From Candidatus Curtissbacteria bacterium RIFOXYA1_FULL_41_14 (GTDB lineage: Bacteria > Patescibacteriota > Microgenomatia > Curtissbacterales > GWA2-41-24): DNA of 64,000 nucleotides. The position numbers were made by a program, and so were the translations under genes. This document shows, piece by piece, positions 1 to 60,310 of the stretch (position 1 is the first letter of the stretch; each line of letters opens with the position of its first letter). The stretch is taken from assembly GCA_001775095.1 (NCBI GenBank), contig MFCA01000025.1:22994-86993 (forward strand), given 5' to 3'. The notes beneath the pieces were generated by a model. It made no database searches. It saw only the letters and a list, made by a program, of their open reading frames with translations, and was not told where the DNA came from.

Positions 1-75
1 TCGAAAGACTTGTCCAGAATCCCTACCGGGTAGATTCTGGAGTCACTCTACAATGTAGAGTTCCCCAGAATGATA
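1..75. repeat. Partial copy, cut by the window edge, of the palindromic structured element family (terminal inverted repeat tgtcattctgg/ccagaatgaca)
   Basis: Positions 1-75 match the 43683-43790 copy in module order: ggtcgaaag-cttgtccagaatcc-[variable loop]-gattctggagtc-[variable self-complementary hairpin]-ccccagaatga. The loops differ between copies but stay palindromic. Confidence 0.7.
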
Positions 76-159
76 ACTGAAAGACTCATAATAATTTTAT
101 TCCCCGGGTCTTAGCGTCGGAAATATCTTCCTCTTTAGTAAAGAGCGATATTTCCTAGC

Positions 160-1608
160 TCAAGTTTTTGACCTGAGTGTCGGAAATAATATTACATCTT
201 TGATCGAGGGAGAGTTTGTAAGAATCATCACTAAACGATCCATTGACGGGCCAATACCTGAAGTCGGCGGCATGCCATATTCAAGGGCCTCGTTAAAATC
301 TGTATCTGTTTGATGGGCTTCTTCCTCGCCTAATCTTTCTTTTTTCCTTTCGTCTTGAAAGCGAAGTTTAAGGTCCTGCGGGTCGTTTAGCTCGCTGTAA
401 TTATTGGAGGCTTCCATCCCGGCGACGAAATGCTCAAAGCGCTGGACAAATCGGGGATCTTTACCTTTTTTAGCAAGGGGTGAGGTTTCAACCGGGAAAT
501 CGTAAATAATTGTCGGGGAAATTAAAGTTTCGACAACTTTTTGGTCAAAAATTTCGGCCAGGATTAGCCCTGCGGTTTTCTGGAAAGGCTTTAGAGGTAC
601 ATTTAATTTTTTTGCATGCTGTTTGGCCTTGTCAGCATCTGTTATTTTGGAAAAATCAACTCCGGTTGCTTCTCTGACTGCATCAATCATTGTTACCCTC
701 TTCCAAGGCCTTTTAAAATTAACGGCCGAATTCTGGTATTTAACTTTGGTTGATCCTATGGTTTTTTTGACAACATATTCGGTCATCTGCTCAACCAAAT
801 CCATATTAACTTGATAATCGGCATAAGCTTCCATGGTCTCCAAAATAGTGAATTCGGGATTGTGCTGTCTGTCAATTCCTTCATTTCTAAAGACGCGGGC
901 AATTTCAAAAACTTTTTCAAAACCGGCAACGATTAATCTCTTTAAGTAAAGCTCGGTGGAGATTCGAAGATAAAGAGGGATACCCAAAGCATTGTGATAA
1001 GTTTTAAAAGGCCGTGCTAAACCTCCACCGTAAAGCGTTTGCAGAACCGGTGTTTCAACTTCGATGTAACCGCGATCCAGTAAGAATTGGCGGTGAGCCT
1101 GGATGACTTGCGATCGCAGCTCGAAAACTTTTTTGACCTGCGAATTAAATAGAAGATCTAAATAGCGTTTACGGTATCTTTCTTCGATATCTTTTAGGCC
1201 GTACCAGGTAGAAGGCAGAGGTCTTGTTGATTTGGTAAGCAGTTCAAAATCTGAGGCGAAAATTGTTGTTTCGCCGGCTTGGGTTTTGTCGACTTTGCCT
1301 GTAACCTGGATAAAGTCGCCGATATCCAAAAGCGTTAACAGTTCACGGTTCACAGTTGACAGTTTGTCTTTGGAAAAGAAGAGCTGGATTTTGCCGGACT
1401 CGTCAACAAGGTCAGCAAAAGTTGACCCGCCGTGTGACCGAAGTGCCATGACGCGGCCGGCAGTCTGCACATTTTTACCCTGTGATTTTAGACAATCGGA
1501 GATATTTACTTCTTTTTGGCTTTTGGCAGGATAAGGATTAATGCCTAATTTCCTGATTTTTTCAAGCTTTTCAAGGCGAATTTTACGCAGTTTCTCCAGC
1601 GGCTCCAT
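160..1608 (-). CDS. lysS: Lysyl-tRNA synthetase, class II
   Basis: The ORF-track protein has a typical LysRS N-terminal OB-fold domain and class II catalytic core (FRNEG..., GGxGxGxDR-like C-terminus). The likely start is the internal Met (MEPLEKL) at 1608, not the track start at 1704. Confidence 0.9.
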   Translation of the reverse strand: MEPLEKLRKIRLEKLEKIRKLGINPYPAKSQKEVNISDCLKSQGKNVQTAGRVMALRSHGGSTFADLVDESGKIQLFFSKDKLSTVNRELLTLLDIGDFIQVTGKVDKTQAGETTIFASDFELLTKSTRPLPSTWYGLKDIEERYRKRYLDLLFNSQVKKVFELRSQVIQAHRQFLLDRGYIEVETPVLQTLYGGGLARPFKTYHNALGIPLYLRISTELYLKRLIVAGFEKVFEIARVFRNEGIDRQHNPEFTILETMEAYADYQVNMDLVEQMTEYVVKKTIGSTKVKYQNSAVNFKRPWKRVTMIDAVREATGVDFSKITDADKAKQHAKKLNVPLKPFQKTAGLILAEIFDQKVVETLISPTIIYDFPVETSPLAKKGKDPRFVQRFEHFVAGMEASNNYSELNDPQDLKLRFQDERKKERLGEEEAHQTDTDFNEALEYGMPPTSGIGPSMDRLVMILTNSPSIKDVILFPTLRSKT

Positions 1609-3082
1609 GAGGTAAAGTATACGAGGAAGGCGAAGAATTATCAATGAAGCTTGGAAGAGTTTGGGAATCGCTAAATGGAGCTCTAATTGAACCGTATCTT
1701 CCACTACGATCTGATACTAATTGTAAAAAGTAGTGGTATTCCTGTTCAGGTGTTGTTGACTGACTGAAGATAAACCTTAATAGTTCTCTTTTACCTTCTA
1801 TCGTAAGATTACCTGCATACCACTGATGAAGACGGAAACCAATTCCATAGGCGTAGAGATAAGTTCGCTTCACAGGGTCATCTCTTCTTTCTTGAATCTG
1901 ATTTCTTATTTCGTCTTCGGGTTCTGCTGGTAAAAATCTGTGCATATATGCAATCATTTCCTCATCAGTGGACCCTGTGGTGTTGACCATAATGTGTATA
2001 TTGTTATAGATCATCTGTCTCAAACCTTCCAGCTCAAGCTCTGACTCTGTATGTTCTGAGAAATGCCGATGCAAACTTGGTACAAAAAGATGGACTGTCT
2101 GGGCAAACCCTTCAATGGGAATCTGTCCCGGATAATGAACGGATGTCAGGCCTAAAACCCGCAATAACTCACCCCTATCTATGGCATTTTTCCAGCTCTC
2201 CATTTGCGCCGCGTGTCCGGCAATCTCATGGGCTGCCATAGCTTCAACTTTACCTTCTGTCCACCTGCTTGCATGCCTGACAGGGTGAGTATTAATCTTT
2301 AATGAAAATCTTTCGTGGTCTCCGTCAATCCAATCAATCCAATAATCGTCTTCTTTGACGGCTTCAATATCGAGCTCTGGTGTTATCTTTTTACCCAGGA
2401 AGTCTGAAACTGTTCCAAGGTAAGTTGCAACATAATCTCTCATCTTATCCGGAAGTGTTTCTTCGGAAACTAGGTGTTCACGTCTATAGCGTTCAATCGA
2501 TTCACTGTCGATAGCTCCAAATCCCTTTGTGATTGAGTCAATCTGAGCCATAAGTGTGCTTTCTTCGATCATTTGCGGTCTTATACCCTGAGTTAAGCTG
2601 ATAAATTCTTCAAATGGAAATTCTTGGTTTGTTTTTCCTCGATAAAAGGTGGAGTGGGCTATAAGTTCTGCTAGTAGGAATTCCCGTTGGAGTTGGAGGG
2701 CTGCTGTTTTCCCATTTCTGGGCAGTATAATTCTTTCTGCTCTGCTACGAAGTTCGTCAATAGACCCCACAATTTCTGTCCATTCTCTTTTTGTGGGAGG
2801 GCCTTGATGCCATTTCTTCCTTCTTTCTAGGGCCCTGCGATCTCTTGGGCTTACAGGAACGAGGTCGAAATCAACTAGTTTACGGTGTGGTCCTTCCATC
2901 ACATACGCGTCGCGTAACACCTCTATGGCTTCGTCGGAGAGCTCATAAAGTTCATACTCTGGCCCTTTTTGCTCCCTCCTTCTAAAGATAGAGGGTATTA
3001 TTCCCCTGTCTTTGAATACTATTGGTCCCCTATCTCTGAATTGTTCTGGCCTACTGGCCATGTTTTGCCTCCATAAACCCAA
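1583..3082 (-). CDS. Hypothetical protein with an HEXXH motif (HEIAGH); putative zinc metallopeptidase
   Basis: A 499-aa ORF with the single motif 'AAHEIAGHAAQ'. I recognise no confident family. The C-terminus is low-complexity. Confidence 0.5.
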   Translation of the reverse strand: MGLWRQNMASRPEQFRDRGPIVFKDRGIIPSIFRRREQKGPEYELYELSDEAIEVLRDAYVMEGPHRKLVDFDLVPVSPRDRRALERRKKWHQGPPTKREWTEIVGSIDELRSRAERIILPRNGKTAALQLQREFLLAELIAHSTFYRGKTNQEFPFEEFISLTQGIRPQMIEESTLMAQIDSITKGFGAIDSESIERYRREHLVSEETLPDKMRDYVATYLGTVSDFLGKKITPELDIEAVKEDDYWIDWIDGDHERFSLKINTHPVRHASRWTEGKVEAMAAHEIAGHAAQMESWKNAIDRGELLRVLGLTSVHYPGQIPIEGFAQTVHLFVPSLHRHFSEHTESELELEGLRQMIYNNIHIMVNTTGSTDEEMIAYMHRFLPAEPEDEIRNQIQERRDDPVKRTYLYAYGIGFRLHQWYAGNLTIEGKRELLRFIFSQSTTPEQEYHYFLQLVSDRSGRYGSIRAPFSDSQTLPSFIDNSSPSSYTLPHGAAGETA

Positions 3083-3094
3083 GATTATACTACT

Positions 3095-4456
3095 TTAAAT
3101 GAGTTTCTTCAAATTCGGTCTGAAGCGCTCGAAGATTTCCAACGAGGCATACTTCTCAACAAAATGCTGGGCATCTTCATAAGTACCTACTGCTAAAATA
3201 CGCTCAAGGGTATCGGCGAGTTCATTGATTGAGACAAAAAGTTTCGTAAAATTTGGCCAGGAGAACCCTCCGGCTTCCCTAATTGCGCCGCTTTCCAAGA
3301 AATAATTCAAAGCAATTGCAAAACCTTGGGCATAGTGAATAATACTAGGTTCTTTTAGGTAAGAAGTCCACCAGGAAAATGCCCGGGCTACAAACATAAC
3401 CATAATCGCTTCCAGTTCTTTTTGACTAATTACGTCTTTTAAAAGTAATGACCCGCAGGCTTTAACCCCGTAGATTGAGGCACTAATTTCATCAAAAACA
3501 GGGAAGTATTCTTTGAGTCTTCTTTCACTGTCACGATACCTTAAAAGGGTATGGGAAATTTCATGCAGGTAAGAATTACGCAGAGAACCCATCTTGAGTA
3601 CATCAATTGGATATCCTTGCTGGAATTTTCCTTCAAAAATGGCATGGAATATAGGGTGATGCTCGGCGTTAAATTTAATGTCAAATGAGGGTTTGAAAAT
3701 TGTAATTTCTGACCCATGTTTTTCCATTAAGCCGACATCGTTTGGTAAGTTCGAGCTGGTAAACATAAAGTGGGCAATCAAACCTGAAAAGATAAGAACA
3801 TCATCAACACGAATCTGAATTTTATCCAAGAAATCGACCTTTTCCGAAGGGGCTAAAACCTTTCTTCTTCCTGACACAATGTAATTTTTGAAAACTGTGG
3901 TGTCACTGGTCCTTTGCTCGTCCATAATGCCAACCCAAGATTGATAGGCACATTTTGTGAAGAAAAGTTTGTCATCATACCGCTCAATCGGGCCGATAAC
4001 AAAGTTGATTTTGTAGGGTTTTAATGAAAGCCAATAAATGTCACTTGTTTCATAATTGCCATCTAAAAGTGAATTGGCCTGAACCTCGAGGCGTTTAGCA
4101 AAATCATGATTTTGGGTAATTTTGGCAGCCTCTTTAACTAAACGGGCTACCTTCTCCAGTTGTTTTACGAATTTAACATGATAAGGGATAGCTATAAGTT
4201 CTCCCTTTTTATTTTTTTCGACCATCGTATAGGGTGAAAGGATAGCCTTGTTGTGCCTGGCAGCTTTGACAATTTCTTCTTTGGTAACATCGTGAGGATA
4301 AAAATTGGCGCCTAAGTAGTTGGAGTTTTCTTGTTGTTCATAAATGGCGGAAATAGCCTCGGCCGCATCGATAAGCTTAGTTACCACCCGCTTTTCGGAA
4401 GCTGACAATTTTCGAATGGCTTTTGCTGAAAATTTAATTATTGGTTTTTTGGTCAT
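3095..4456 (-). CDS. Hypothetical protein with an HEXXH motif (HEISHT); putative zinc metallopeptidase
   Basis: A 453-aa ORF with the motif 'YLHEISHTLL'. It lies directly downstream of greA on the same strand. Confidence 0.5.
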   Translation of the reverse strand: MTKKPIIKFSAKAIRKLSASEKRVVTKLIDAAEAISAIYEQQENSNYLGANFYPHDVTKEEIVKAARHNKAILSPYTMVEKNKKGELIAIPYHVKFVKQLEKVARLVKEAAKITQNHDFAKRLEVQANSLLDGNYETSDIYWLSLKPYKINFVIGPIERYDDKLFFTKCAYQSWVGIMDEQRTSDTTVFKNYIVSGRRKVLAPSEKVDFLDKIQIRVDDVLIFSGLIAHFMFTSSNLPNDVGLMEKHGSEITIFKPSFDIKFNAEHHPIFHAIFEGKFQQGYPIDVLKMGSLRNSYLHEISHTLLRYRDSERRLKEYFPVFDEISASIYGVKACGSLLLKDVISQKELEAIMVMFVARAFSWWTSYLKEPSIIHYAQGFAIALNYFLESGAIREAGGFSWPNFTKLFVSINELADTLERILAVGTYEDAQHFVEKYASLEIFERFRPNLKKLI

Positions 4457-4929
4457 TTAATTTCTAAGACCCTGATCTTACTTTTAACCGGGCCAACTGC
4501 TACTTCTATTGTCTCTCCGACTCTTAAACCGAGAAGTGCTTGACCGACAGGCGATTCATTGGATATCTTTTTCGTTGCAGGGTCAGCCTCCATTGACCCA
4601 ACTATAGTAAATTCGTGAACTTCATCCCCCATCTCTACTACCACTGTAGAGCCAATAACAACAAATCCATTTTTGGGGGTTTCACTTATAATTTGAGCTT
4701 TATGCAGAACCTCTTCCAGTTCTGATATACGATGTTCTAAAAGAGACTGTTCTTCTTTGGCAGCATCATATTCCGAATTTTCGGAAAGATCTCCGAATTC
4801 TCTGGCTCTTTCGATCCTTTGAATAATCTGTGATCTCTTAACATTAACCAACAGATCATACTCCCCTTCTAACTTAGCCAGTCCTTGAGGGGTAAGGATA
4901 AATTTCTTGGAACTTTGAGTCATGTTCAT
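4453..4929 (-). CDS. greA: Transcription elongation factor GreA
   Basis: A 158-aa protein with an N-terminal coiled-coil (DLSENSEYDAAKEEQ) and a C-terminal FKBP-like domain typical of GreA/GreB. Confidence 0.9.
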   Translation of the reverse strand: MNMTQSSKKFILTPQGLAKLEGEYDLLVNVKRSQIIQRIERAREFGDLSENSEYDAAKEEQSLLEHRISELEEVLHKAQIISETPKNGFVVIGSTVVVEMGDEVHEFTIVGSMEADPATKKISNESPVGQALLGLRVGETIEVAVGPVKSKIRVLEIK

Positions 4930-5238
4930 ATATGTAGGAAGCTAATTCTATTGCAAAAATACCTCCAGGTCAAGAATTGTGAGTTTAACTATTCACCTTT
5001 CCCCAAATGGATATGTCATCGCGAGGCTACGTAGTAGCCGTGGCAATCTAAAAGATTGCTTCTCCAGCTGCGCCGGATCGCAATGACGATTTGGCTGGAC
5101 AAAACTGAATAGTTACTTGTGAGTTTGTTATTAGTTTGTTGAAAACCTCGTTATTCTTCGAACAATGTGAGAAGTCTGACAGTTCTCGCTACGGAGAGTA
5201 TCAGACGGTACTCTCCTACGCTCGAACAATATTGGTTT

Positions 5239-5266: not shown

Positions 5267-5285
5267 GATGATCGAATTTAGATTC

Positions 5286-6314: not shown

Positions 6315-6355
6315 GGTCTAGCGACTAGGGTTTAGGGTTTAGGGACTGTATAAGA

Positions 6356-18876: not shown

Positions 18877-18890
18877 CCCGTCTCTTTTCT

Positions 18891-18981
18891 GTCATTCCGG
18901 ACCTGATCCGGAATCTATACTTATCTGGATTCCCGCCCTTCGGTCTTGAACTCAGGGTCGAAAGACTTTCGCGGGAATGAC
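18891..18981. repeat. Copy of the palindromic structured element (gtcattccgg ... ggaatgac) in the csoR-pduO intergenic region
   Basis: Has terminal inverted repeats, an inner hairpin ttccgg-acctgat-ccggaa, and the module 'cccttcggtcttgaactcagggtcgaaag' shared with the 43683 copy. Confidence 0.65.
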
Positions 18982-19001
18982 ATCTAATATATAATTCTGA
19001 C

Positions 19002-19670
19002 GTGAAGATTTATACAAAAACCGGGGATGGTGGTACCACTTCCCTGTTTGGTGCCCGAAGAGTGGATAAAAATTCGGCAAGGATTGCAGCTTATGGAGAA
19101 GTTGATGAGTTGAATTCGTTAATCGGCGTAATACTTGCAGAATTAACTCCATATCCTGACTGTCATTCTGGGGAGCGAAGCGACTCCAGAATCGATTCTG
19201 GACAAGTCCTTCGACCTCGCTCAGGACCGTTTAAGGATCGTGAGTTTAATCGAACGGCCAGAATGACAAAGCAGAAATTAATCATCAAGAAACTTTTGAG
19301 GATTCAGTCGGAACTTTTTGTTTTAGGTGCTGACTTAGCAACACCAGCTGATGTTAAAACCAAGGTGCCAAGAATCACTAAAAGATATATAACAAGACTT
19401 GAGGAAGAAATTGATTCATGGAGTGATAAATTACCCAAACTACGTAATTTTATATTGCCTGGTGGAAATAAGGTGGGATCAAAGCTTCATCTGGCAAGGT
19501 CGGTTGTCCGGCGTGCAGAAAGAGCAATTGTTGACCTTAATAGGCAAGAAAAAATTAACCAAAATGTATTAATTTACACCAACCGCCTCTCCGATTGGTT
19601 TTTTGTCGCAGCAAGATATATTAACAAACTGGAAAATATCAGGGAAAATATTTGGAAAGGCAGGGGTTAA
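19002..19670 (+). CDS. pduO: ATP:cob(I)alamin adenosyltransferase, PduO type
   Basis: GTG start. MKIYTKTGDGGTTSLFGARRVDKNSARIAAYGEVDELNS... and ...IQSELFVLGADLATP match the PduO/MMAB family. The ORF carries an extra ~36 aa between the first two helices, described in the next feature. Confidence 0.85.
   Translation: MKIYTKTGDGGTTSLFGARRVDKNSARIAAYGEVDELNSLIGVILAELTPYPDCHSGERSDSRIDSGQVLRPRSGPFKDREFNRTARMTKQKLIIKKLLRIQSELFVLGADLATPADVKTKVPRITKRYITRLEEEIDSWSDKLPKLRNFILPGGNKVGSKLHLARSVVRRAERAIVDLNRQEKINQNVLIYTNRLSDWFFVAARYINKLENIRENIWKGRG
19161..19268. mobile_element. Palindromic element copy (reverse orientation) inserted in-frame within pduO (108 nt = 36 codons)
   Basis: tgtcattctgg...ccagaatgaca with inner ccagaatcgattctgg. 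It aligns to the 43683 copy in reverse complement. It encodes PYPDCHSGERSDSRIDSGQVLRPRSGPFKDREFNRTARMTK, with no stop codon, in a loop region of PduO. Confidence 0.7.
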
Positions 19671-21254: not shown

Positions 21255-24080
21255 CTAGCTGCATTTGCTCCAGCCGCAGGAGGGATTGATGCATTGACGG
21301 CAGCCTTCGGCAAAGACAACCGGGCTTGCGCAATCTGGGCAAACTACAAATTTATTTTCAATTATTTTTTCCTGATGAATGCTACTTACCGAACCGGTGT
21401 CGATTTGGTACTTACCCCCGACTGGGATATTCATCTGGGTACTTTTGGTGTTTCCCTTTGTTAAACCATTACCACTTCCTGTTTGACCGTTGGTATAAGC
21501 TGATTTGGCCGGGTAGTTTGTATGGCCGTTGGTTAAGGGAGTTTTTACAATGGATTCGATTGGTTCGTCTTGCCCAACTACTGGAAGGGTAAGTTGTTTG
21601 GCTTTGGCAATCTCCAATAAGGATTTACCGACGGCATCAAAGGCGGAAAGGACGCTGTCCGGTCCGATACCATAGGGCGTACCACAGGATATCCCGACTA
21701 GGTCTGTAGCAACCTCCTCCAAGCTCGCACCATATTTCAGGGCGCGGGATGCCAATCTGCCTGTAACTTCAGCGGCACCAGCCACATAACCGCCTGTTTT
21801 ACCGATAGTTACAAAAACCTCAACCGGCATACCTTCAGCATCCCGAAATACGGATGTATAAACATATCCAACATCAGCTTTCTTGCGAACTCTCATTCCC
21901 ACAGCTTCAGTTGGGGTCGACTTTTTTCTAGGAATTTGTGGTTGTGGTTCTTGGTAAATACGTTTACCGGTAAGCTGGTCATAATAAGAGTTATCTTTTT
22001 TAACCTCCAGGACTTGCTTAATTCTTGAACCGTCGCGATAAATTGTAGTCATGCGGCAACCAAGTTCGTATGTCAGCCAATAAGCTTGCCGGACATCTTC
22101 GACAGTCGCTTCATTTGGAAAATTGATTGTTTTGGAAATTCCGTTGTCAGTGTATTTCTGGAAAGCTGCTTCCATACGGATATGATCAGCAGGAGAAATA
22201 TCTTGGGCAACTACAAAAACCCTTGTCAGATCCTGAGGTATCTCACCTAAATTCTGAATTGAACCACGATTCTCTTCAATCTTGGAAAGTAATTGGTCGG
22301 AATCAATCCCCTTATTTTTCAAGGCCCCTAAAAAGTAGGAGTTAGTATTAAAAAGTCTTTTACCCTCGATGGTATTTTTGGCAAATGTCAGCGCAAAATA
22401 CGGTTCAATACCGCTGGAACAATCAGCAAGCAGGGAAATTGTGCCGGTTGGAGCGATAGTTGTTCTGGCAGCATTTCTTGGATGAATTTTACCTGGTTGG
22501 TTGTAGATAGAATCTTTGAAGGATGGAAATACCCCGCGAACCTTTGCTAGGTTCACACTGGCATTGTCTGCTTCATCTTGAATGAACTTCATGACTTTTT
22601 CTGCCAAGGAGAAAGCTTCAAAAGTGTTATAGCCAATACCAAGTTTGGCCAGCATATCTGCCCAGCCCATAACTCCAAGGCCGATTCTTCTGATTTTTGA
22701 GGTCATCTGGTCAATTTCCGCAACCGGATATTCGTTCATATCAAGAACGTTATCCAAAAAGTGAACTGCCTTGTGGATTGTTTGTTTTAACTCTTGCCAG
22801 TCGATTCTTTCTTCGACCGGTTCATCATATTGAGCGGAAGCCCTTCGACTTTGCTCAGGATCTTCGACCCTTCGACTTTGCTCAGGATCTTCGACCCTTC
22901 GACTTTGCTCAGTGTCTTCGACTTCGTCTTTAACGAACTTGGAGAGATTAACAGAGCCTAAAGTACAGGCATCATATGGGAGAAGCGGCTGTTCTGCACA
23001 GGGATTGGTAGCTTCGATTTGGCCAAGTTTTGGAGTTGGATTAGCCCGGGAATCGTTGATTCTATCAATTAAAACCACTCCCGGATCTCCGTACTGCCAG
23101 GCAAGTCTGGTTATTAAATCAAAGACTCTTTTGGCATTGAGTTTGTCAGTAACTTCACCGGTCCGAGGATTAACAAGGTTGTATCCTTCCCCTTTATGTT
23201 TAGCACGACAAGCTTCATATAACTTTCTAACTGCTTCTTCAACGCGAACATTTTTAAGATCAAGGTCGCGAATTGTGTATGCTTCTCTTATTTCTTCTAT
23301 AATCTCGTTAATTTCCAACTCGCCATCCGCACCTCGACTACGCTCGGTGTCTTCGACAAACTTGGCATCTTTTTTGACTTTTTCCATAAATTCCTCAGTT
23401 ATACTTATGGAGATATTAAAGTTAGTTAGCGAAAACTCATCGACTTTGTGAACTGCAAAACGCAAAATATCAGGGTGTGTATAGTGAAGGATTCCCATAT
23501 TAGCACCGCGGCGAACTCCACCCTGTCTTATTTGCGAAGTTACGTCGTTATAGGCTTGCAAAAAAGCAACTGGACCGGTTGATTTGCCCTTTGAGGTACC
23601 AATAATATCGTCTTTTGGACGGAGCTTGGAAAAAGAAAAGCCTGTCCCACCGCCCATTTTATGAATCATTGCCATATCCCGCATCGTTCTGAGAATTGAT
23701 TCCATATCATCCTCAATAGGTAAGACAAAACAAGCTGAAAGCGATTGGCCGGTTTTACCGGAGTTGACTAAAGTCGGAGTATTGGGAATAAATCTCTGGG
23801 AAGCCATAAGTTTGTAAAATTCTTTGGCTGTCTTTTTGTGGATATTGCCTTCGTAAATTCTGTCGGCAGCGGCAATATAGTAGGCAACACGCCAGAAAAG
23901 TTTTTTTGGAGTTTCTACCGGTTCCCCTTTCTCGTTACGGAAAGAGTAACGGGTTTGGGCAATATAGGCAGCATTTTCGGATAGAGTCGGTTCAAATAAA
24001 TCTTTCGGGACAGCCGGAATCTTTCTGCCTATTGCGCGAACATCTTCTCTTGTGAATTTCTTCTTTAACACTTTTTTCAT
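21255..24080 (-). CDS. nrdJ: Ribonucleoside-diphosphate/triphosphate reductase, class II (adenosylcobalamin-dependent)
   Basis: A 941-aa protein with the class II RNR fold signature and a C-terminal Cys-rich zinc ribbon (CPDCASP...CRQCINPSCGWSKCS). It overlaps nrdR by 4 nt. It contains in-frame repeat insertions, described in the next feature. Confidence 0.9.
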   Translation of the reverse strand: MKKVLKKKFTREDVRAIGRKIPAVPKDLFEPTLSENAAYIAQTRYSFRNEKGEPVETPKKLFWRVAYYIAAADRIYEGNIHKKTAKEFYKLMASQRFIPNTPTLVNSGKTGQSLSACFVLPIEDDMESILRTMRDMAMIHKMGGGTGFSFSKLRPKDDIIGTSKGKSTGPVAFLQAYNDVTSQIRQGGVRRGANMGILHYTHPDILRFAVHKVDEFSLTNFNISISITEEFMEKVKKDAKFVEDTERSRGADGELEINEIIEEIREAYTIRDLDLKNVRVEEAVRKLYEACRAKHKGEGYNLVNPRTGEVTDKLNAKRVFDLITRLAWQYGDPGVVLIDRINDSRANPTPKLGQIEATNPCAEQPLLPYDACTLGSVNLSKFVKDEVEDTEQSRRVEDPEQSRRVEDPEQSRRASAQYDEPVEERIDWQELKQTIHKAVHFLDNVLDMNEYPVAEIDQMTSKIRRIGLGVMGWADMLAKLGIGYNTFEAFSLAEKVMKFIQDEADNASVNLAKVRGVFPSFKDSIYNQPGKIHPRNAARTTIAPTGTISLLADCSSGIEPYFALTFAKNTIEGKRLFNTNSYFLGALKNKGIDSDQLLSKIEENRGSIQNLGEIPQDLTRVFVVAQDISPADHIRMEAAFQKYTDNGISKTINFPNEATVEDVRQAYWLTYELGCRMTTIYRDGSRIKQVLEVKKDNSYYDQLTGKRIYQEPQPQIPRKKSTPTEAVGMRVRKKADVGYVYTSVFRDAEGMPVEVFVTIGKTGGYVAGAAEVTGRLASRALKYGASLEEVATDLVGISCGTPYGIGPDSVLSAFDAVGKSLLEIAKAKQLTLPVVGQDEPIESIVKTPLTNGHTNYPAKSAYTNGQTGSGNGLTKGNTKSTQMNIPVGGKYQIDTGSVSSIHQEKIIENKFVVCPDCASPVVFAEGCRQCINPSCGWSKCS
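21256..21282. repeat. 27-bp direct repeat (right copy) equal to the authentic 3' end of the nrdJ CDS
   Basis: Pairs with 20744-20770 at 26 of 27 positions and brackets the DUF4258/DUF2283 cassette. Confidence 0.8.
22841..22921. repeat. Three tandem in-frame copies of a 27-nt unit (ccttcgactttgctcaggatcttcgac) within nrdJ
   Basis: Encodes ...VEDTEQSRRVEDPEQSRRVEDPEQSRR... A further single copy sits at about 23332-23357 (VEDTERSRG). The same unit is in gltX and in the palindromic elements. Confidence 0.85.
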
Positions 24081-28130: not shown

Positions 28131-28233
28131 TCGAATATTATAGCATCAGATAAGGCTAAAACATTTAACAGCTGAGGGTATAAGTAGCGAGGGTACAGTT
28201 ACATTGGTGCGCAGTCGTGCTGAAATGGCCGGT

Positions 28234-29703: not shown

Positions 29704-29719
29704 TGGCTGCCAGACTAGG
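29704..29719. repeat. Duplicate of the tRNA-Gln 3' end (tggctgccagactagg versus tggctgccggactagg at 30151-30166; 15 of 16 match)
   Basis: Same orientation as the tRNA copy and 431 bp away. The enclosed segment carries the GIY-YIG ORF plus repeat-derived sequence. This is an att-like direct-repeat signature. Confidence 0.6.
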
Positions 29720-29775: not shown

Positions 29776-30045
29776 CTAAAGCTTCTTTAGTAATTCCAAC
29801 TCCCCTTTTATCAAAGCCTCTTTTTTAGCTCTTGTCCATTTTTTTACTTGAAGCTCTCGGTTCATTGCAGATTTTATGTCTAGATACTTTTCTGTGTAAA
29901 CAATGCTTACTGGTGTTTTGCCTCGCAAATATTTTGCGCCTCTTGATGAATTTGAATTATGTTCTTTTAACCTTTTATCTATATCGGTCGTCATCCCACA
30001 ATAAAAGGAATTATCCGAACATCGAAGAATGTAAAAGTGGTACAT
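29776..30045 (-). CDS. GIY-YIG nuclease domain protein (UPF0213/YhbQ-like)
   Basis: MYHFYILRCSDNSFYCGMTTDIDKRLKEHN...GAKYL is the stand-alone GIY-YIG domain. It is 89 aa long. Confidence 0.8.
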   Translation of the reverse strand: MYHFYILRCSDNSFYCGMTTDIDKRLKEHNSNSSRGAKYLRGKTPVSIVYTEKYLDIKSAMNRELQVKKWTRAKKEALIKGELELLKKL

Positions 30046-30150
30046 GAGTTCTTCGATTACCCTTCGACTCGGTCAATAAATTGATCTCGCTCAGGGCATT
30101 CAACTCACTTCTTAAGGGGCAATAGTCATGAGCGAACGAAGTGAGTCGAA

Positions 30151-30224
30151 TGGCTGCCGGACTAGGATTCGGACCTAGATAAGCAGATCCAGAATCTGCT
30201 GTCCTACCATTAGACGATCCGGCA
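30151..30224 (-). tRNA. tRNA-Gln (anticodon CUG)
   Basis: Hand-folded on the minus strand: acceptor TGCCGGA/TCCGGCA with U1-A72, discriminator G73, CCA encoded, D-stem GTCT/GGAC, anticodon arm GCAGA-TTCTGGA-TCTGC (CTG), T-arm CTAGG-TCCGAAT-CCTAG. The T-loop has C at position 55, which is unusual. Confidence 0.7.
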
Positions 30225-31289: not shown

Positions 31290-31434
31290 ATAAACTTCCG
31301 AGGGCTAAGAGCACTCGGTATTGTTCTTTAAGTTTACATGAGCGAGCAGATGTTTCCTCGGCTCGGAAGTATGTATTCGTTCTCACATTCATCCGTGGGC
31401 TAATAGTCCATGGTCTTCTGCGAACGAATATAAA
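31290..31434. repeat. Structured repeat family 2, copy A (about 145 nt)
   Basis: About 80% identical to 38156-38295. Shared blocks are ataaacttccgagggctaa, aagtttacatgag.gagcaga, aagtatgtattcg, cattcatccg and ctgcga.cgaatataaa. The hairpin ccgtgg...ccatgg corresponds to ccgagg...cctcgg in copy B with a compensatory change. Confidence 0.7.
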
Positions 31435-32278: not shown

Positions 32279-32779
32279 AGGTTTATGATAGCAAATTGAA
32301 GCTAATTAGAGCTGGCACAGGCTAAAGTTCTGAATACTCTTTACTCCAACAATCTTTCTCAGGACCGTCCCAAATCACCCCTGGATATTTGGTAAGTTCA
32401 GCCCAATTCGCGGTTCGGAAATCATCAACTACTCCCAGCACGACTGTGCACCCATGTAACCGTACCCTCGACATTCACCCTTCAAATACCCCGATAATGA
32501 GGCTACGGTTGCAAAAGCGTCCTTGTTTTCACCTTGTTAACGATACACCCCCAACCATAGTCTTGGTTTCCAGTAAGGTTTTTAGGGTTAATAGAAATTT
32601 AATCTCGCCCGCTTAGTGAAGAATGTATGGTAGAGTCTAAGAAAGAGGTCTAAGCTACGTTAATTGAAGTACCAGACTATCTATCGATAAGTCAGAATTT
32701 TGCTCGTGAGTTATCACTTGCGTCACAAGGGGAAACTACGAGCGTACCATTTATAAAAAATCCACTTCCAGAATACCCA

Positions 32780-36115: not shown

Positions 36116-36533
36116 TCCTAAATCATTTTACACTTCATATAATGATTATGTTTTTGCGAAGCAAAAGGCAAGACTTCGACGATGAGCTCAGTCGAATCGC
36201 TTCTGCGAATACGAAGTATAATTTAACATTAATTAAGAAATTTGATCTAATCAAAAAATATTTTCAAAGTTAAACAGACATATTACTTAATCTGCTAATT
36301 ACGAAGCTAAGCATATCTGGGAGTACTCTTAAGGTCAAATTTTCTTATGCTAAAGTAGCTTATTAGAAACTGATGCTAGTTGGATCTACTGAATAGCGAA
36401 GCTAGGGAGAGAATCGCAACGCGGCAATCGCCTGAGACTATAACCCTAGGCACCGCATCCGACTATAATGACGGAATGGGTCTTGACCGACACGCTCAGC
36501 TTTTTTCCCAGCAGGAAGTAAAGGTCGCTTTGG

Positions 36534-38155: not shown

Positions 38156-38295
38156 ATAAACTTCCGAGGGCTAAAAGCCCTCGGTATTTGCTCTTCAAGT
38201 TTACATGAGAGAGCAGAATACCCTCGGAAGTATGTATTCGCTTTCGCATTCATCCGAGGATTAATAATCCTCGGTATTCTGCGAGCGAATATAAA
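38156..38295. repeat. Structured repeat family 2, copy B (about 140 nt), immediately 5' of the 38307 gene
   Basis: See copy A. It contains five ccgagg/cctcgg hexamers in alternating orientation, able to form mutually exclusive hairpins. It ends 11 nt before the ATG at 38307. Confidence 0.7.
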
Positions 38296-43607: not shown

Positions 43608-43682
43608 TTTAGATATGCATATCGTAACATTTTTTGTTATTTAACTTCTTCTTGTATAATGAGGGGCACGTTCCGCACGTCT

Positions 43683-43790
43683 GTCATTCTGGCCCTTCGG
43701 TCTTGAGCTCAGGGTCGAAAGGCTTGTCCAGAATCCATATCTTGATTAGATTCTGGAGTCGTCGAGTCAGACTCGACTCCCCAGAATGAC
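43683..43790. repeat. Full-length copy (108 nt) of the palindromic structured element in the dxr 5' region
   Basis: gtcattctgg-[cccttcggtcttgagctcagggtcgaaaggctt]-gtccagaatcc-atatcttgatta-gattctggagtc-gtcgagtcagactcgac-tccccagaatgac. It has nested inverted repeats and a -10-like tataat about 25 nt upstream. Confidence 0.8.
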
Positions 43791-43822
43791 AAATGGGAAA
43801 TCGTGATGACAAAAAGTACAGC

Positions 43823-46863: not shown

Positions 46864-48181
46864 AATTTTTAAGTCTGGTAATCGTCTCCTCTTGACCAAG
46901 TTGTTCCATAGATTCGTAAAGAGGAGGGGTAATTATACTACCTGAGACAATATTTCTGACAGCAGAAATTAACTCTATCCTGTCGATTTTTTTAAGGACA
47001 GCTGTTTCCTCGATTAATTTCCTGATGACAGAATTATTCCAAACCTTACTTTTTTCAAAAACTGAGATTACATCAGCAATCAATGAAACAGACAGTGATA
47101 TTTTGGGAATATTTGAAATTTTCGGGCGGTTGAAAAAGAAGTCCGCCATTTTTGGGAATTCCAACAATGTTTTCATCCGTTCCCTGACAAGTGGTATTAA
47201 AGATCTGATTTTTTCAAGATCATATTGGGGAAAAAGGGTTTTAATCTGTTTGGCAAGTCTGTCGTCTTTGATCTTTTTCATCCACTCCCGATTAAACCAA
47301 TTTAATTTTTCGCCGTTGAAGATCGGGCTGTTTTTGTTAAGGCGATCAAGCGAAAATTCGCGAGTTAAATCATTTAGAGAAAATATTTCTCTATCGTCTT
47401 TGGGCGCCCAACCAAGAAGGCTCAAAAAGTTAACTAGAGCTTCGGGCAGATAACCTTCATCTATATATTCGATAACTGATTTTGCACCTTCGCGCTTTGA
47501 AAGCTTTTTACGATCAGGTCCCAGGATTGGCGGCAGATGAATAAAAGCAGGATATAGCCACGAAAAGGCCTCGTACAAAAGAAGATGTTTTGGAGTTGAT
47601 GATATCCATTCGTCCCCGCGGATGACGTGGGAGATTTGCATATCGTGATCATCAACAACAGAGGCAAAGTGATACGTCGGGAAACCGTCGGATTTTACTA
47701 TGATAAAGTCTTCGAGTACATCGGATAAAAACTTAATTTCGCCATGAACCAAATCTTGCCATTTTAGGGTTTTTCCTTTTGGAATTTTGAAGCGCCAAGA
47801 TCCTTGGTCTTCATAAACCAGCTTCTGGTCTTTTAGAATTTTCAGGTGTTTCTGGTAAAGATCCAGTCTTCTGGACTGCTCGTAATACTCATCCCATTTC
47901 AAACCAAGAACCGAGAGGCTTTCTTGAATTATTTCTCGAGAGCCTGGAACTAGTCTTTTACGATCGGTGTCCTCAAGCCTGAGTATGAAGGTGCCATCCT
48001 GATTTTTTGCATACAAAAAATCAAAAAGGGCTGTTCTTATATTGCCGATATGAGGAACTCCAGTTGGCGACGGGGCATATCGAACACGGACCCTTCGACT
48101 ACGCTCAGGGTCTTCGACCTTTCGACTACGCTCAGGGTCTTCGACCTTTCGACTACGCTGCGGGTCTTCGGTCTTTTTCAT
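46847..48181 (-). CDS. gltX: Glutamyl-tRNA synthetase with an N-terminal repeat-encoded extension
   Basis: RVRYAPSPTGVPHIGNIRTA (HIGH) and KLSKREG (KMSKS). The first 30 residues, MKKTEDPQRSRKVEDPERSRKVEDPERSRR, are encoded by the 27-nt tandem repeat. There is no alternative start downstream of the repeat. Confidence 0.85.
   Translation of the reverse strand: MKKTEDPQRSRKVEDPERSRKVEDPERSRRVRVRYAPSPTGVPHIGNIRTALFDFLYAKNQDGTFILRLEDTDRKRLVPGSREIIQESLSVLGLKWDEYYEQSRRLDLYQKHLKILKDQKLVYEDQGSWRFKIPKGKTLKWQDLVHGEIKFLSDVLEDFIIVKSDGFPTYHFASVVDDHDMQISHVIRGDEWISSTPKHLLLYEAFSWLYPAFIHLPPILGPDRKKLSKREGAKSVIEYIDEGYLPEALVNFLSLLGWAPKDDREIFSLNDLTREFSLDRLNKNSPIFNGEKLNWFNREWMKKIKDDRLAKQIKTLFPQYDLEKIRSLIPLVRERMKTLLEFPKMADFFFNRPKISNIPKISLSVSLIADVISVFEKSKVWNNSVIRKLIEETAVLKKIDRIELISAVRNIVSGSIITPPLYESMEQLGQEETITRLKNYVKKK
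48092..48172. repeat. Three tandem in-frame copies of the 27-nt unit (ccttcgactacgctcagggtcttcgac) at the 5' end of gltX
   Basis: It is the same unit as in nrdJ with 2-3 substitutions, and it encodes VEDPERSRK repeats. Confidence 0.85.
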
Positions 48182-56467: not shown

Positions 56468-57777
56468 TCTATCTTCCTCACCCAGAACACTCTAATAAAG
56501 GTTCTGGTTACTGTAATTGCCGAAAACATCGAGACTAAAATTCCGATTGCCAGTGTTAGGGCAAATCCTCTGATTGAACCCGTACCAAAATTAAAAAGGA
56601 TAGCCGTAGTAATCAAAGACGAAACATTTGAATCACGGATTGACGACCAAGCTCTGTCAAATCCTGTAAAAAAAGCGTCGTGTTTGGGCTTACCCCAGCG
56701 GAGTTCCTCTTTTATTCTTTCAAAGATCAATATGTTGGCATCGACGGCCATACCAATAGAAAGGACGAAACCGGCAATACCTGCTAAAGTCAGGGTAACT
56801 GGAATTATTTTGAAAATTGCAAAAACAATAAGAGTATAGATACAAAGGGCGGCAACTGCGAATATACCAAGTACCCGGTAACAAACGATCATAAAAATTG
56901 CAACGGACACCAGACCAACTGCCGTTGCAAAGAGACTTTTTTGTATTGAATCAGTGCCAATCGTTGGGCCGATTCTGGTTTGGCTTTCAATGTTTAAAGG
57001 TACTGGAAGTGCACCGGCATTAAGTTGGATAGCTAGTTGTTTGGCTTGCTGGGAAGTAAACCCACCAGTGATTTGAGCATTGCCATCGGTTATAACGGCT
57101 TTAATAATAGGCGGTGGCCAGGAGATTGGTTGATCGTCAAGATACATAGCCATAGGTTTTTCGAGGTTGTTTGTAGTAATTTCTTCCAATTTCTTGGCTC
57201 CTTCACTGTTAAATTCTAAGTTGACCACATAGCCTGGTGATTGGGGATCTTGACTGGGAGCAGCGGTGGCTCTTTTTAGATCTTTACCAGTAAGCCCAGA
57301 AGCTTCAAAGTATTCCGGTGTAGCGGCATAAGTAGCTTCCGGTGGAGCATCAGCTTTGATAATTTGAAACTCAAGATGAGCTGTTTTTTTAACTATTGAG
57401 ACCGCCTGATCAATATCGGAAATTCCCGGAATTTCTACAATCAGCCGGTATTGACTCTGTGTTTTAGCAGTTTGAATCACCGGCTCAGCAACACCCAGCG
57501 AATTTATTCGATTCTCCACAATGTCTTTAGCAGAACCAAGTGCCGTATCACGATCCTGCGGTTCAATATTGGTCATATCTGCCGACATTGTTAACTGAAC
57601 CCCTCCGGCAAGATCTAAACCGAGTTTTGGTTCCAGGTCTCTTTTGAATATTCTTGTATTAATTTTTGGATGGGAAAGTTCTACACCTTTAAACTTAATT
57701 ATGGGAAGATCAAGATAAAACGCGGCGACTGTTAATATTAGAATTAAAAAAAGGATACGTCTTGGCTTTTTAAGCAT
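56464..57777 (-). CDS. secD: Protein translocase subunit SecD
   Basis: A 437-aa protein with the typical SecD topology and conserved C-terminal TM bundle. Confidence 0.85.
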   Translation of the reverse strand: MLKKPRRILFLILILTVAAFYLDLPIIKFKGVELSHPKINTRIFKRDLEPKLGLDLAGGVQLTMSADMTNIEPQDRDTALGSAKDIVENRINSLGVAEPVIQTAKTQSQYRLIVEIPGISDIDQAVSIVKKTAHLEFQIIKADAPPEATYAATPEYFEASGLTGKDLKRATAAPSQDPQSPGYVVNLEFNSEGAKKLEEITTNNLEKPMAMYLDDQPISWPPPIIKAVITDGNAQITGGFTSQQAKQLAIQLNAGALPVPLNIESQTRIGPTIGTDSIQKSLFATAVGLVSVAIFMIVCYRVLGIFAVAALCIYTLIVFAIFKIIPVTLTLAGIAGFVLSIGMAVDANILIFERIKEELRWGKPKHDAFFTGFDRAWSSIRDSNVSSLITTAILFNFGTGSIRGFALTLAIGILVSMFSAITVTRTFIRVFWVRKIE

Positions 57778-57788
57778 TGGCAGAAATC

Positions 57789-58367
57789 TTAAAGCTTAAC
57801 CATTTCCTCTTCATCGCCAATTAGCATGACTTTGGGTTTTGCTAAAATTCCCATGACGAATGGGTCACGGCGATTTTTGCGAAAATTAAATTCTTCCTCG
57901 GTCATTGGAGTAAAATTTATCTCGCGGTTACGCCTTGCTTCTTCTTCCCGAATAATACTGCCAAGTTCCGGCAGAATAATTGTACCGACAACAAAAAGAT
58001 CAACTTCATTCTGCGTATAGGGTCTTCCTTTAGCAAATGAGCTCGAAAGCATTGCATACTTAATTTTGCCAAGTTTGGCTTTACTTGTTAAAATTGCCCC
58101 TCCAAGACCCACACTTTTATTGATAATTGAGAGTAATTCATTAAAAAAGACATAATCACGACGAAGAGAATAGAATCTCCTGTTAGCCCGCCACTCACTC
58201 AGCAAAAGTCCGGTTTTTTCAAGCCTTGCAAGCTCTCGCCTGACAGCATTTATTTCCTCATCCACTCTTCTTACGATCTCTCTGACATGGTAAATTTGAC
58301 CCGGATTACTCAAGAAAAGCTCAAGGATTTTGACTCTGACTTTTGAGATTAAAATATCAACTAACAT
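57789..58367 (-). CDS. Winged-helix DNA-binding domain protein
   Basis: N-terminal wHTH (KVRVKILELFLSNPGQIYHVREIVRRV...LARLEKTGLL). The C-terminal half is of unknown function. Confidence 0.45.
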   Translation of the reverse strand: MLVDILISKVRVKILELFLSNPGQIYHVREIVRRVDEEINAVRRELARLEKTGLLLSEWRANRRFYSLRRDYVFFNELLSIINKSVGLGGAILTSKAKLGKIKYAMLSSSFAKGRPYTQNEVDLFVVGTIILPELGSIIREEEARRNREINFTPMTEEEFNFRKNRRDPFVMGILAKPKVMLIGDEEEMVKL

Positions 58368-58447
58368 TTATTATCGCTTTCAAATCAAAGATTTGATTGT
58401 TAGATTAAATGGCAGACTGGAAAATAGTTTTTGGGCAGGCTACTTTG

Positions 58448-59575
58448 TTAATATTCGATATCACTGTCAACTGGCACAGTTTCAATCCAAATCATACCTC
58501 TATTAAGTTGAATTTCTTTACCTTGGGCATCTACAAACTGGGTTCTTGATATTCTATCTTTCTTAACCCATTTACCTTTAATCACCTGGCCGTCTAGAAA
58601 AACAAGAGCATTGCCTGTGCCTGTTGTTCCGTAAAGAAGATGGCCGTCGGGATAACCGTCATTAGCAGTCTTTTCAATCTGAAACTGAACTATCATATTT
58701 TTGGCGGAAAGCTGTTCATTAGTAATTGGATCGTTTTGGGCCACGTTTTGATGAGTCCTACGATACAAATTCGCTTGTTTGTCGTAATTCCAAGTAACTG
58801 TGTAATCGGAAGACTGCTGCCAAAAAGGAACGATAACTGGTTTCTGATCGCCACGCGCCTCAAGGCTGGCATCATCTTTAAATTTCCACTCTATAAAATT
58901 CTTATCCCATCTGACGCCTTCTTCATCTTCCGGGCCAAATTTACGCTCACTTGCTGCTTCCCAAAGTTTTTGAGTCGTTGAGTGAACGTTATGGGGAGCA
59001 AGCTTATCCGTGCCTCGCCAGAAAGTCGGGAATCCTAAACCAAACTGATCCATATCCAAAATACCGTACTGTCTTATTTGACCAAGAGCATCGGCAGGTC
59101 CGGGTGTATTCGCACCGCCTACATGAGCATAGAGTGCATTGTACTCAGATACCCAGTCTAAAAAGTAAGTCCTGGCAGATCTTACAGGTGCAATATCTCC
59201 AGCGTCTTGACAGAGATAGACAGCTAAAAACCTGGTAATACCCCCTTCGGCAACTGCTTCATAAATTACGTCTGCCCGAGACAAGCCAAGTGTTGGTCTG
59301 GCATCCACGTGATTTTCAACCATAACACCAAGCGGCCTTCTCTCTTGCCATTTTTGTTCCCTATTCTTGGTGTAAAGGGCACCATTTAATGGGCAAGGAC
59401 GATCTTTTACGCCTTCCTCGTTGCCCGAAGTGACATCAGTTAAACTCCCGAAAGGTGTGACTATATTTACTGGTCCCTTCAAAACTGCATTAAATACCAT
59501 ATATGACAGTCCTGCCGACGCAAAATATAAAACTAGTATCCCAATAAGAACTAATAGCAGTTTTTTCTTATTCAA
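58448..59575 (-). CDS. DUF3048 (YerB-like) lipoprotein/secreted protein
   Basis: The RPLGVMVENHVDARPTLGLSRADVIYEA motif of DUF3048, with a signal/TM N-terminus. Confidence 0.7.
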   Translation of the reverse strand: MNKKKLLLVLIGILVLYFASAGLSYMVFNAVLKGPVNIVTPFGSLTDVTSGNEEGVKDRPCPLNGALYTKNREQKWQERRPLGVMVENHVDARPTLGLSRADVIYEAVAEGGITRFLAVYLCQDAGDIAPVRSARTYFLDWVSEYNALYAHVGGANTPGPADALGQIRQYGILDMDQFGLGFPTFWRGTDKLAPHNVHSTTQKLWEAASERKFGPEDEEGVRWDKNFIEWKFKDDASLEARGDQKPVIVPFWQQSSDYTVTWNYDKQANLYRRTHQNVAQNDPITNEQLSAKNMIVQFQIEKTANDGYPDGHLLYGTTGTGNALVFLDGQVIKGKWVKKDRISRTQFVDAQGKEIQLNRGMIWIETVPVDSDIEY

Positions 59576-59603
59576 AGTTATTTTTTACCAAGCCGAGCTT
59601 TAG

Positions 59604-60077
59604 TTAAACGGCTTGGCGGGCAGCTTTTTCAACTACCTCTTTTTCCTCCTTAGAGAATGGATGGGTTGTTGGTTTTGCACCAGAAACCCCTTTCGCATAA
59701 ACTCTAGTTCCGCCTCTTGAGTGTAGAGATGATATAACCACGCCATTATTAGCACCATCCAGAAGGGCTAAAACAAAGCTTTGGTCTCCTCCCGTATCCT
59801 CAAAAGGGTTGAATCTGATAAGTGCGTGTTTAGTAAAACTGCCCTTCTGGGCCTGGTCAAGTTTTTGAATTTGTTTTGTAAGCTGCTGTCTATTTTCATT
59901 TTGCAAGTTAACTTTTTCAATTACCTCTTCTAATATCCTATCGAGGGTCTGTCCCTTAGCTCCTTTTGTAAGTCTTCGATAGTGGCCAATCGTTTTTATA
60001 AGATAAACACTTAAGATTGCCAGCCAGATTCCTAATACGATAAGTAAATAATCGGTGGCTCTTACCTGTTGCCACAT
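59604..60077 (-). CDS. DUF4446-like membrane-anchored protein
   Basis: N-terminal TM helix, coiled region, and C-terminal RFNPFEDTGGDQSF motif. Confidence 0.5.
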   Translation of the reverse strand: MWQQVRATDYLLIVLGIWLAILSVYLIKTIGHYRRLTKGAKGQTLDRILEEVIEKVNLQNENRQQLTKQIQKLDQAQKGSFTKHALIRFNPFEDTGGDQSFVLALLDGANNGVVISSLHSRGGTRVYAKGVSGAKPTTHPFSKEEKEVVEKAARQAV

Positions 60078-60170
60078 CTTTTAGCCTAAGCTTTGCTTGG
60101 AAAACACCAGTGTCATGTTGAATAAATTTAGTACCCCTTCTTTTACCATGCAAGTTGCAGGATTGTCAAT

Positions 60171-60242
60171 CCTTCGACTTCGCTCAGGATGACTCTGAGT
60201 TAAATCGAAGAGTCAATGGGTTCGACAAGCTCACCATTGACT
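60171..60242. repeat. Repeat-derived segment: one 20-nt core unit (ccttcgacttcgctcaggat) plus the hairpin gagtcaatgg...ccattgactc
   Basis: The core is identical in pattern to the nrdJ/gltX tandem unit. The 10-bp inverted repeat is separated by 14 nt. Confidence 0.6.
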
Positions 60243-60310
60243 CTTCAGTCAAATCGAGTGATTGATGGATCGGTGAGTCGGAGTGTTGTGTTAATATATG
60301 TCATAGAGTT

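Follow-up and report, generated by a model that had tools for sequence, protein, structure and literature searches.

What kind of element is the hairpin-forming repeat that recurs in the genome of Candidatus Curtissbacteria bacterium RIFOXYA1_FULL_41_14, and what spreads it? The question is raised by a 64,000-nt stretch of contig MFCA01000025.1 (the whole analysed stretch, referred to as the window), in which a first-pass annotation had marked five copies of a dispersed palindromic family and compared them with transposable elements of the miniature, inverted-repeat kind (MITEs) and with the palindromic elements of Rickettsia (RPEs). Our answer, to which we give a probability of roughly 65%, is that the repeats are non-autonomous, gene-less, MITE-like derivatives of an approximately 370-nt cassette that carries an Ssn-type GIY-YIG nuclease gene, and that their hairpin units follow the grammar of the NTS and SRM repeats of the Ssn system.

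All five sites are present in the window, within 1-2 nt of where they had been placed, and four of them (c1 to c4; Table 1) are tail-to-tail doublets of one hairpin unit, YGTC-AT-stem...stem'-AT-C, with the termini YGTCATTCYGG...CCRGAATGACR. The fifth, listed at 60171-60242 as a fragment, belongs elsewhere: it is a cluster of the hairpins referred to below as X-core and has no GTCAT termini. The inner hairpin CCAGAATC-loop-GATTCTGG that had been ascribed to all copies is found in c1, c3 (with a loop length of zero) and c4, and not in c2, which uses other stem dialects. The window edge truncates c1, an element with a degenerate outer terminus (ATCATTCTGG); its complete form, seen in the overlapping contigs L136 and L145, measures 107 nt. 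The sequence CCAGAATC occurs 12 times (2.45 expected; none of 100 shuffles reached 12), and CCTTCG-N4-8-GCTCAG occurs seven times (0.02 expected). Folding of the copies as single-stranded DNA gave z-scores of -4.6 (c4), -4.5, -3.6 and -3.3, with -3.5 for the fifth site, and c2 folded into two separate hairpins.

Read on its own strand, each half of a doublet has the form GTC-AT-S...S'-AT-C. A search of the window and 717 kb of related loci for GTCAT, a 5-mer, a loop, the complementary 5-mer and ATC yielded 107 units, compared with two when the 5-mer was shuffled. These units have 18 different stems (TCTGG in 78, CCTGA in 8, TCCCG in 3, and others), and when candidates were set by the flanks alone, their complementarity was bimodal, with 10 of 29 being fully complementary. 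Over 12 short units, four of the eight pairs of the 8-bp stem change on both sides (16 cells) and one-sided changes of the G.U type are absent; the covariation score of 0.451, against 0.184 in shuffles, was equalled in none of 500 shuffles. GTC, AT..AT and C stay invariant across dialects while the stem covaries. The excess of units and the stem covariation bear out the earlier view of a dispersed, structured palindromic family in which hairpins are kept despite sequence change.

The arrangement of the units is equally regular, with 32 doublets being tail-to-tail, none head-to-head and one tandem. Six doublets, including c2, have different stems in their two units, and single units also occur. 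The conserved pairing thus lies within each unit, and the terminal inverted repeat that had been proposed as a shared feature, while real in the doublets, is a by-product of two units sitting inverted. A nested four-way-junction fold, in which the termini would be paired, was considered and set aside because heterologous doublets pair within units only. A second doublet family consists of a variable-stem unit (ACCGA, GCTGA, TCCGG, GCCGA) joined to a CCTGA or TCCCG unit; it was seen at L031, L033, L047, L145 (20572-20623) and, as c2, in the window, and it may derive from a different nuclease allele.

The TCTGG units have two classes of loops. Those of the Y type read GGA-hairpin-GACT or TAAG-hairpin-CGCAT and comprise 31 different loops of 5-62 nt, whereas those of the X type derive from a plain CTTGT loop, into which a module of 21-69 nt may be inserted. 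This X module has as its core a hairpin, stem-GAGY-N2-14-TCGA-stem' (the X-core), whose stem also covaries (TCTT/AAGA, TCCT/AGGA, CCCT/AGGG, TGGT/ACCA, GTCT/AGAC and others). Many Y-type loops contain GCGAAGC, an unusually stable DNA mini-hairpin. The "second hairpin" of the first-pass annotation, described there as changing by compensation, is a slot that accepts different hairpin modules rather than one helix drifting by compensatory substitution. True covariation exists, but it resides in the stems of the units and of the X-core.

Further copies were sought with an exact 21-mer from the junction common to c1, c3 and c4 in a species-representative genome collection. It was found in 41 stretches, from Curtiss-, Davies-, Roizman- and Gottesmanbacteria and from several metagenome-assembled genomes (MAGs) labelled Gammaproteobacteria. 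Two of the matches, in Treponema, lie inside coding sequence and are due to chance. In the aligned copies, YGTCATTCTGG is followed by at least one X module with TCGAARGRCTTGT at its end, then by CCAGAATC, 0-31 nt of spacer, GATTCTGG, the Y hairpin and CCAGAATGACR; half elements are common too. The genome of the window has been recovered many times from aquifer metagenomes, and no description of this hairpin-repeat family was found in the literature searched. Complete doublets with the 21-mer junction in Gammaproteobacteria-titled MAGs (L010, L014, L021, L022, L028, L035, L043 and L046) reflect either cross-phylum spread or mislabelled bins. A scan of IMG/VR for the TCTGG unit gave 41 viral-labelled stretches (L155-L195), only part of which appear genuine; at least eight have a CTTGN loop and one (L189) is a genuine heterologous doublet, and as the count is near a rough chance estimate, it is not taken as evidence.

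The gene from which the doublets appear to derive lies beyond the left edge of the window, and overlapping contigs that encode window proteins led there (subtracting an L145 position from 11609 gives the window position). The 92-aa core of the open reading frame (ORF) found there (L145 13053-13328) matches PF01541 and shares 55% identity (E = 1e-33) with Ssn-type protein sequences from genes flanked by canonical NTS. A Y-type unit ends 15 nt before the ATG of this ORF, and inverted X-type units stand at its 3' end. Because the ORF reads into these downstream units, the last 73 of its 165 codons are translated repeats. A Daviesbacteria genome, a Levybacteria genome and a further Patescibacteria contig have the same bracket; in these, the two units are 286-303 nt apart, the Y-type unit being 1-23 nt upstream of the start codon and an inverted GTCATTCTGG-CTTGT-CCAGAATC unit being at the stop codon. 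An ssn homologue is thus flanked by units on both sides in four Patescibacteria genomes, including this one. As a positive control, the Ssn-type genes of a Nitrospinae and a Nitrosomonas proved to be flanked by canonical NTS with the same geometry. Most of the doublets (29 of 37) consist of one Y unit and one X or CTTGT unit in cassette order; a doublet therefore looks like the cassette minus its ORF. No long element with these ends was found other than the ssn cassette. Close Ssn homologues are common in Patescibacteria, and homologues of 91-149 aa owe their lengths to the same read-through into repeats.

Several observations point to recent copying. Three units near ssn are exact matches of the 74-nt unit of c3 that carries the X module (at least four identical in all), and the 10 kb around ssn contain eight elements, compared with four or five in the 64-kb window. 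A strain variant (L128) that differs from the window by one single-nucleotide polymorphism in approximately 490 nt is without exactly the 51-nt X module of c3; a plain CTTGT loop remains, with 1 nt of microhomology. No direct repeat of the kind left by target-site duplication abuts 35 of the 37 doublets, and the doublets are flanked by Y to the left and by R to the right. Repeats that equal the two cassette ends without the gene, together with identical copies and a module insertion or deletion, are what one would expect were the cassette the autonomous parent. Immediately outside c1, L136 (20790-20900) and L141 (1750-1900) diverge in sequence even though both contigs encode identical LysS, so that c1 marks a synteny breakpoint.

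Many elements reside in genes. They occur in both orientations relative to genes and within coding sequence, 34 of 73 being in open frames of at least 150 aa, and their hosts include enolase and large membrane proteins. The in-frame copy c3 leaves open the ORF of a PduO-type adenosyltransferase, among whose relatives the corresponding inter-helix loop is either empty (proteins of 181-183 aa) or filled with differing repeat-derived peptides; AlphaFold predicts the c3 insert as a low-confidence, disordered loop between helices 26-48 and 78-113. The proposal of non-autonomous, MITE-like elements tolerated in frame in the manner of RPEs holds. RPEs are likewise found in frame in unrelated housekeeping genes, at fold-compatible positions (PMC10969869). 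Compared by habit and layout, the two families share palindromy, in-frame residence in unrelated protein genes and a similar size (approximately 100-150 bp for RPEs); however, a nuclease partner and a doublet grammar, both present here, were not found described for RPEs in the literature searched. The outcome is a Rickettsia-like residence of repeats in essential genes of a genome of about 1 Mb, including the C-terminus of the nuclease itself.

The link to a known system came from a literature search on the terminus GTCATTCC, which led to the description of Ssn (PMC11893778). In Neisseria, the NTS repeat (CGTCATTCCCGCGMAVGCGGGAATCYRG) is bound only as single-stranded DNA by SsnA, a 94-aa single-domain GIY-YIG protein that has no other substrate than single-stranded DNA; binding hinges on the C right after the palindrome and cleavage on the three bases that precede it, and ssnA is often NTS-flanked on both sides (PMC11893778). 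The present family resembles NTS and SRM in several respects: GTC precedes the hairpin, C follows it and the stem starts with AT, so that the positions key for SsnA are invariant here; just upstream of the nuclease gene stands a forward unit, with an inverted one downstream; each genome has many repeats, which cluster; and the partner appears to be a single-domain GIY-YIG protein of small size whose Tyr/Tyr/Glu spacing is that of SsnA. A Roizmanbacteria copy (L042), GTCATTCCCGCGAAAGCGGGAATCCAG, is a near-exact NTS consensus in which the 5' flanking base is T, not C, and the published SRM search pattern matches this copy as it does NTS and NTSvar.

The family also differs from NTS and SRM. The stems here belong to dialects such as TCTGG, TCCGG and CCTGA; the units form obligatory tail-to-tail doublets equal to two cassette ends; the loops are expanded by hairpin modules of 14-74 nt; approximately 40% of copies are, by prediction, translated in frame; and the host group, Patescibacteria, is absent from PMC11893778, which lists Rickettsia among the SRM-rich genera. 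The family is a new dialect and architecture of the Ssn system published in 2025, and it extends that system to Patescibacteria, with dialects outside the published search pattern. The dRS3 repeat (ATTCCC-N8-GGGAAT) is the core of the Neisseria NTS, and the mosaics of short repeats around genes recall dRS3/NIME and Correia elements; however, Correia elements are DDE-type MITEs with a TA duplication, and neither their sequence nor a duplication is found here.

The description of Ssn left open how the hairpin repeats multiply and whether the repeat-gene-repeat arrangement is mobile (PMC11893778, 2025). A possible scheme is as follows. The hairpins would act as single-stranded DNA, to which the Ssn homologue would bind through the C after the palindrome and which it would cut through the GTC before it, as SsnA does. 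Nicks or breaks at the units might then be repaired from other copies, for which the conserved stems would offer short stretches of homology, so that new copies and loop modules would arise by nuclease-initiated repair, gene conversion or template switching. Such repair would carry loop modules from copy to copy and, more rarely, give rise to new sites; a transposase reaction would not be involved. As a GIY-YIG nuclease is hydrolytic and unable to rejoin DNA, host repair must take part in any such scheme. Copies that land in genes would probably survive only if they are free of stops, a multiple of three in length and placed in surface loops.

A number of points weigh against a derivation from the Ssn cassette. 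The published SRM pattern, HGTCWYN(0-2)YYVSBRHN(0-5)WNVSBRGN(0-2)RNCYNB, has no match in the window plus 10 kb beyond it. For whole doublets, no empty site turned up; the only presence/absence variant seen is the X-module polymorphism. The cassette is known from four examples, and the Ssn gene of this genome, being outside the window, was reached only via look-ups on neighbouring contigs. The 12 rows behind the covariation score had been pre-selected for at least four complementary positions out of five. That this Ssn homologue cleaves the dialects seen here is presumed by analogy with SsnA, and the copying step, a mechanism that we infer, is the weakest part of the account. Finally, the hairpins could be signals recruited by the host rather than selfish elements.

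This last idea deserves the closest attention among the alternatives, and we nevertheless think it improbable. It holds that the units mark single-stranded DNA for Ssn cleavage, thereby tuning DNA uptake, recombination or repair in a bacterium dependent on imported DNA, with copy number under selection. SsnA does limit transformation by NTS-bearing DNA in Neisseria (PMC11893778), and the strict conservation of the recognition positions across dialects, the clustering of elements around ssn and the position of one element at a synteny breakpoint are all in keeping with such a role. However, so many copies inside coding sequence bring no obvious benefit there, copies that are identical and modules gained or lost speak for recent copying, and the architecture of a cassette without its gene has the look of a parasitic derivative. 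The idea is compatible with the data, and it is not exclusive of a derivation from the Ssn cassette.

Mobilisation of the REP/REPIN type, in which a RAYT (TnpA-REP), that is, a Y1 HUH transposase related to IS200/IS605, would move the doublets by acting on single-stranded hairpins, is very unlikely. The resemblance is considerable: REP/REPIN systems also have single-strand hairpin units with a conserved 5' flank, inverted doublets as the replicating unit, a partner gene flanked by repeats and no target-site duplications; single units occur here as well, and the module mosaics resemble BIMEs. However, GTC, rather than GTAG, is conserved 5' of the hairpin, no transposase family, Y1_Tnp included, was found among the genes of the window plus the 10 kb to its left (approximately 84 kb of genome covered), and the gene between the two unit types is in four genomes a hydrolytic GIY-YIG nuclease, not a HUH Y1 transposase.

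Cut-and-paste movement in trans, with a DDE transposase acting on GTCATTCTGG terminal inverted repeats as in a classical MITE, would account for small (approximately 90-110 nt), dispersed elements with such ends. In this sense the MITE label given earlier fails, and we regard it as highly improbable: target-site duplication is lacking, doublets with non-matching termini exist, half elements and single units are common, no transposase was found in the same stretch of genome, and the ends are shared only with the ssn cassette, whose gene is a GIY-YIG nuclease.

The equally faint prospect that the hairpins are selected in a transcript, as a small RNA, a cis-regulator or a terminator, draws on the strong predicted folds and on the location of c2 and c4 just upstream of genes, but it is opposed by the occurrence of elements in both orientations and in coding sequence, the lack of one-sided G.U-type changes, the absence of a T-tract after the hairpins, the many GCGAAGC loops and a search with Rfam 15 covariance models (gathering threshold and E <= 1) that matched two tRNAs and nothing else, so that of the two forms first offered, RNA or DNA cruciform, DNA is favoured.

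The X-core hairpins are not confined to the doublets. They also form tandem arrays, with a repeat of 27 nt or nine codons, in the genes for ribonucleotide reductase and GltX, which the first list of copies had missed, and they stand alone at other positions (Table 1). Their possible partner is a second small nuclease gene, of the UPF0213 type, which lies within the window 105 nt behind a tRNA-Gln(CTG) gene. Simple GIY-YIG regular expressions missed both nuclease genes; a consensus for the nuclease family retrieved more than 8000 PF01541 proteins, and a hidden Markov model (HMM) from the top 120 of them located the window ORF (PF01541, E = 6e-19; PDB 1zg2 and 1ywl, E = 2e-16). Its product is only 31% identical to the Ssn type.

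From metagenomes, 280 relatives of the UPF0213-type protein were found and 80 loci were kept. Within 250 nt of the UPF0213-type gene, the density of the motif TTCGA..GCTCA / TGAGC..TCGAA is 22 times that found farther off. In 36 of 68 loci, the 150 nt upstream of the gene contain, on its strand, an X-core with a complementary stem, with a peak 2-30 nt before the start, and the X-core density upstream of these genes is approximately 55 times the background; in 16 of the loci an X-core lies downstream, and in 11 on both sides. From these figures, the UPF0213-type nuclease family would seem to have the X-core as its cognate hairpin, and this points to a possible cognate repeat for an uncharacterised GIY-YIG family (UPF0213/YhbQ) for which no described function or cognate repeat was found in the literature searched.

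The leader between the tRNA-Gln gene and the nuclease gene is structured and matches an nhmmer profile of 18 GIY-YIG leaders with E = 1.5e-19. As the same profile gave only marginal matches to the X modules of the MITE-like doublets (E = 0.04-0.8), leader and X module are taken to have a motif in common, and no homology is claimed for them. In close relatives, too, the UPF0213-type gene follows tRNA-Gln, with a 12-17 nt copy of the tRNA 3' end downstream in four loci, and the arrangement of tRNA-Gln, leader and nuclease gene looks like a small tRNA-targeting cassette. A 99%-identical protein (L049) is encoded behind another tRNA-Gln, with another leader. The T-loop GGTTCGAATCC, seen in the T-arms of tRNAs from L062 and from the window, is similar to the 3' half of the X-core (GTCGAAGG), and at L083 (381-420) an X-core runs directly into a duplicated tRNA 3' end; whether the likeness to the T-loop is mimicry or common origin is a matter of speculation.

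A bolder construction is conceivable, although we lean against it. Ssn-type cassettes would be autonomous mobile elements of an unrecognised kind, in which a hydrolytic single-strand nuclease is combined with two hairpin ends and whose movement leaves no target duplication, with the doublets of the window as their MITEs. The UPF0213 nuclease would have a cognate hairpin of its own, the X-core (stem-TGAGC..GTCGAA-stem), which would have colonised the loops of the first family and formed the 27-nt in-gene arrays. The result would be a nested, two-tier hairpin parasitism that remodels Patescibacteria proteins.

Table 1. Repeat elements, X-core hairpins and nuclease genes in the window and just beyond its left edge
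Feature	Position	Strand	Remarks
c1 doublet, cut by window edge	1-75	-	X-type unit end 1-21, spacer, Y-type unit 33-74
c2 doublet, two other stem dialects (TCCGG, TCCCG)	18890-18982	none	
c2 short unit	18891-18915	+	GTCATTCCGG-acctgat-CCGGAATC
c2 X-carrying unit	18928-18981	-	stem TCCCG
c3 doublet, in frame in PduO-type adenosyltransferase ORF (19002-19670)	19161-19268	+	108 nt, 36 codons
c3 Y-type unit	19162-19193	+	
c3 X-type unit	19194-19267	-	
X module of c3, within the CTTGT loop of its unit	19206-19256	-	51 nt, 17 codons
c4 doublet, intergenic between MFS (-) and dxr (+) genes, unchanged in six assemblies	43682-43791	-	
c4 X-type unit	43683-43735	+	
c4 Y-type unit	43749-43790	-	
Fifth site, cluster of three X-core hairpins ("ccttcg..gctcagg")	60158-60260	none	without GTCAT termini
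Three 27-nt tandem X-core units in class II ribonucleotide reductase gene	22829-22922	-	translated VEDxEQSRR (VEDPEQSRR)
Single X-core hairpin in ribonucleotide reductase gene	23330-23349	-	
Three 27-nt tandem X-core units, N-terminal extension of GltX	48079-48172	-	translated VEDPERSRK
Solitary palindromic X-core site, intergenic	36172-36199	none	
Solitary X-core hairpin	60716-60735	+	TCCTGAGTGAAATCGAAGGA
X-core hairpin positions in the window	19207-19257, 22841-22887, 36172-36199, 43701-43722, 48091-48110, 60170-60212, 60716-60735		
X-core hairpin sequence			TCCTGAGCGAAGTCGAAGGA
Candidate insert-encoded peptides (predicted)			DSGQVLRPRSGPFKDREFNRTARMT and VEDPEQSRR
UPF0213-type single-domain GIY-YIG nuclease gene	29776-30045	-	89 aa; Y5, Y15, R25, E64 present
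Structured leader, tRNA-Gln to GIY-YIG gene	30046-30153	-	X-like motifs CCATTCGACTC..GCTCA and CCCTGAGCGAG..GAGTCGAAGGG
tRNA-Gln(CTG), directly upstream of the leader	30151-30224	-	
Degenerate duplicate of tRNA-Gln 3' end, downstream of GIY-YIG gene	29704-29719	-	16 nt
Ssn-type GIY-YIG ORF	L145 13053-13550 (window -1941 to -1444)		same JGI contig; 1.4-1.9 kb left of the window

Two other repeats were noted in the window. A two-copy repeat of approximately 145 nt (31290-31434 and 38156-38295; 85-94% identical), with internal hairpins such as CCGAGGGCTAAGAGCACTCGG, is unrelated to the GTCAT family. The second is a 35-nt inverted repeat (28188-28222 and 32436-32470; 91% complementary) whose arms are both intergenic and enclose 4.2 kb with an APH-like gene, the UPF0213 nuclease gene, tRNA-Gln and two ORFs.

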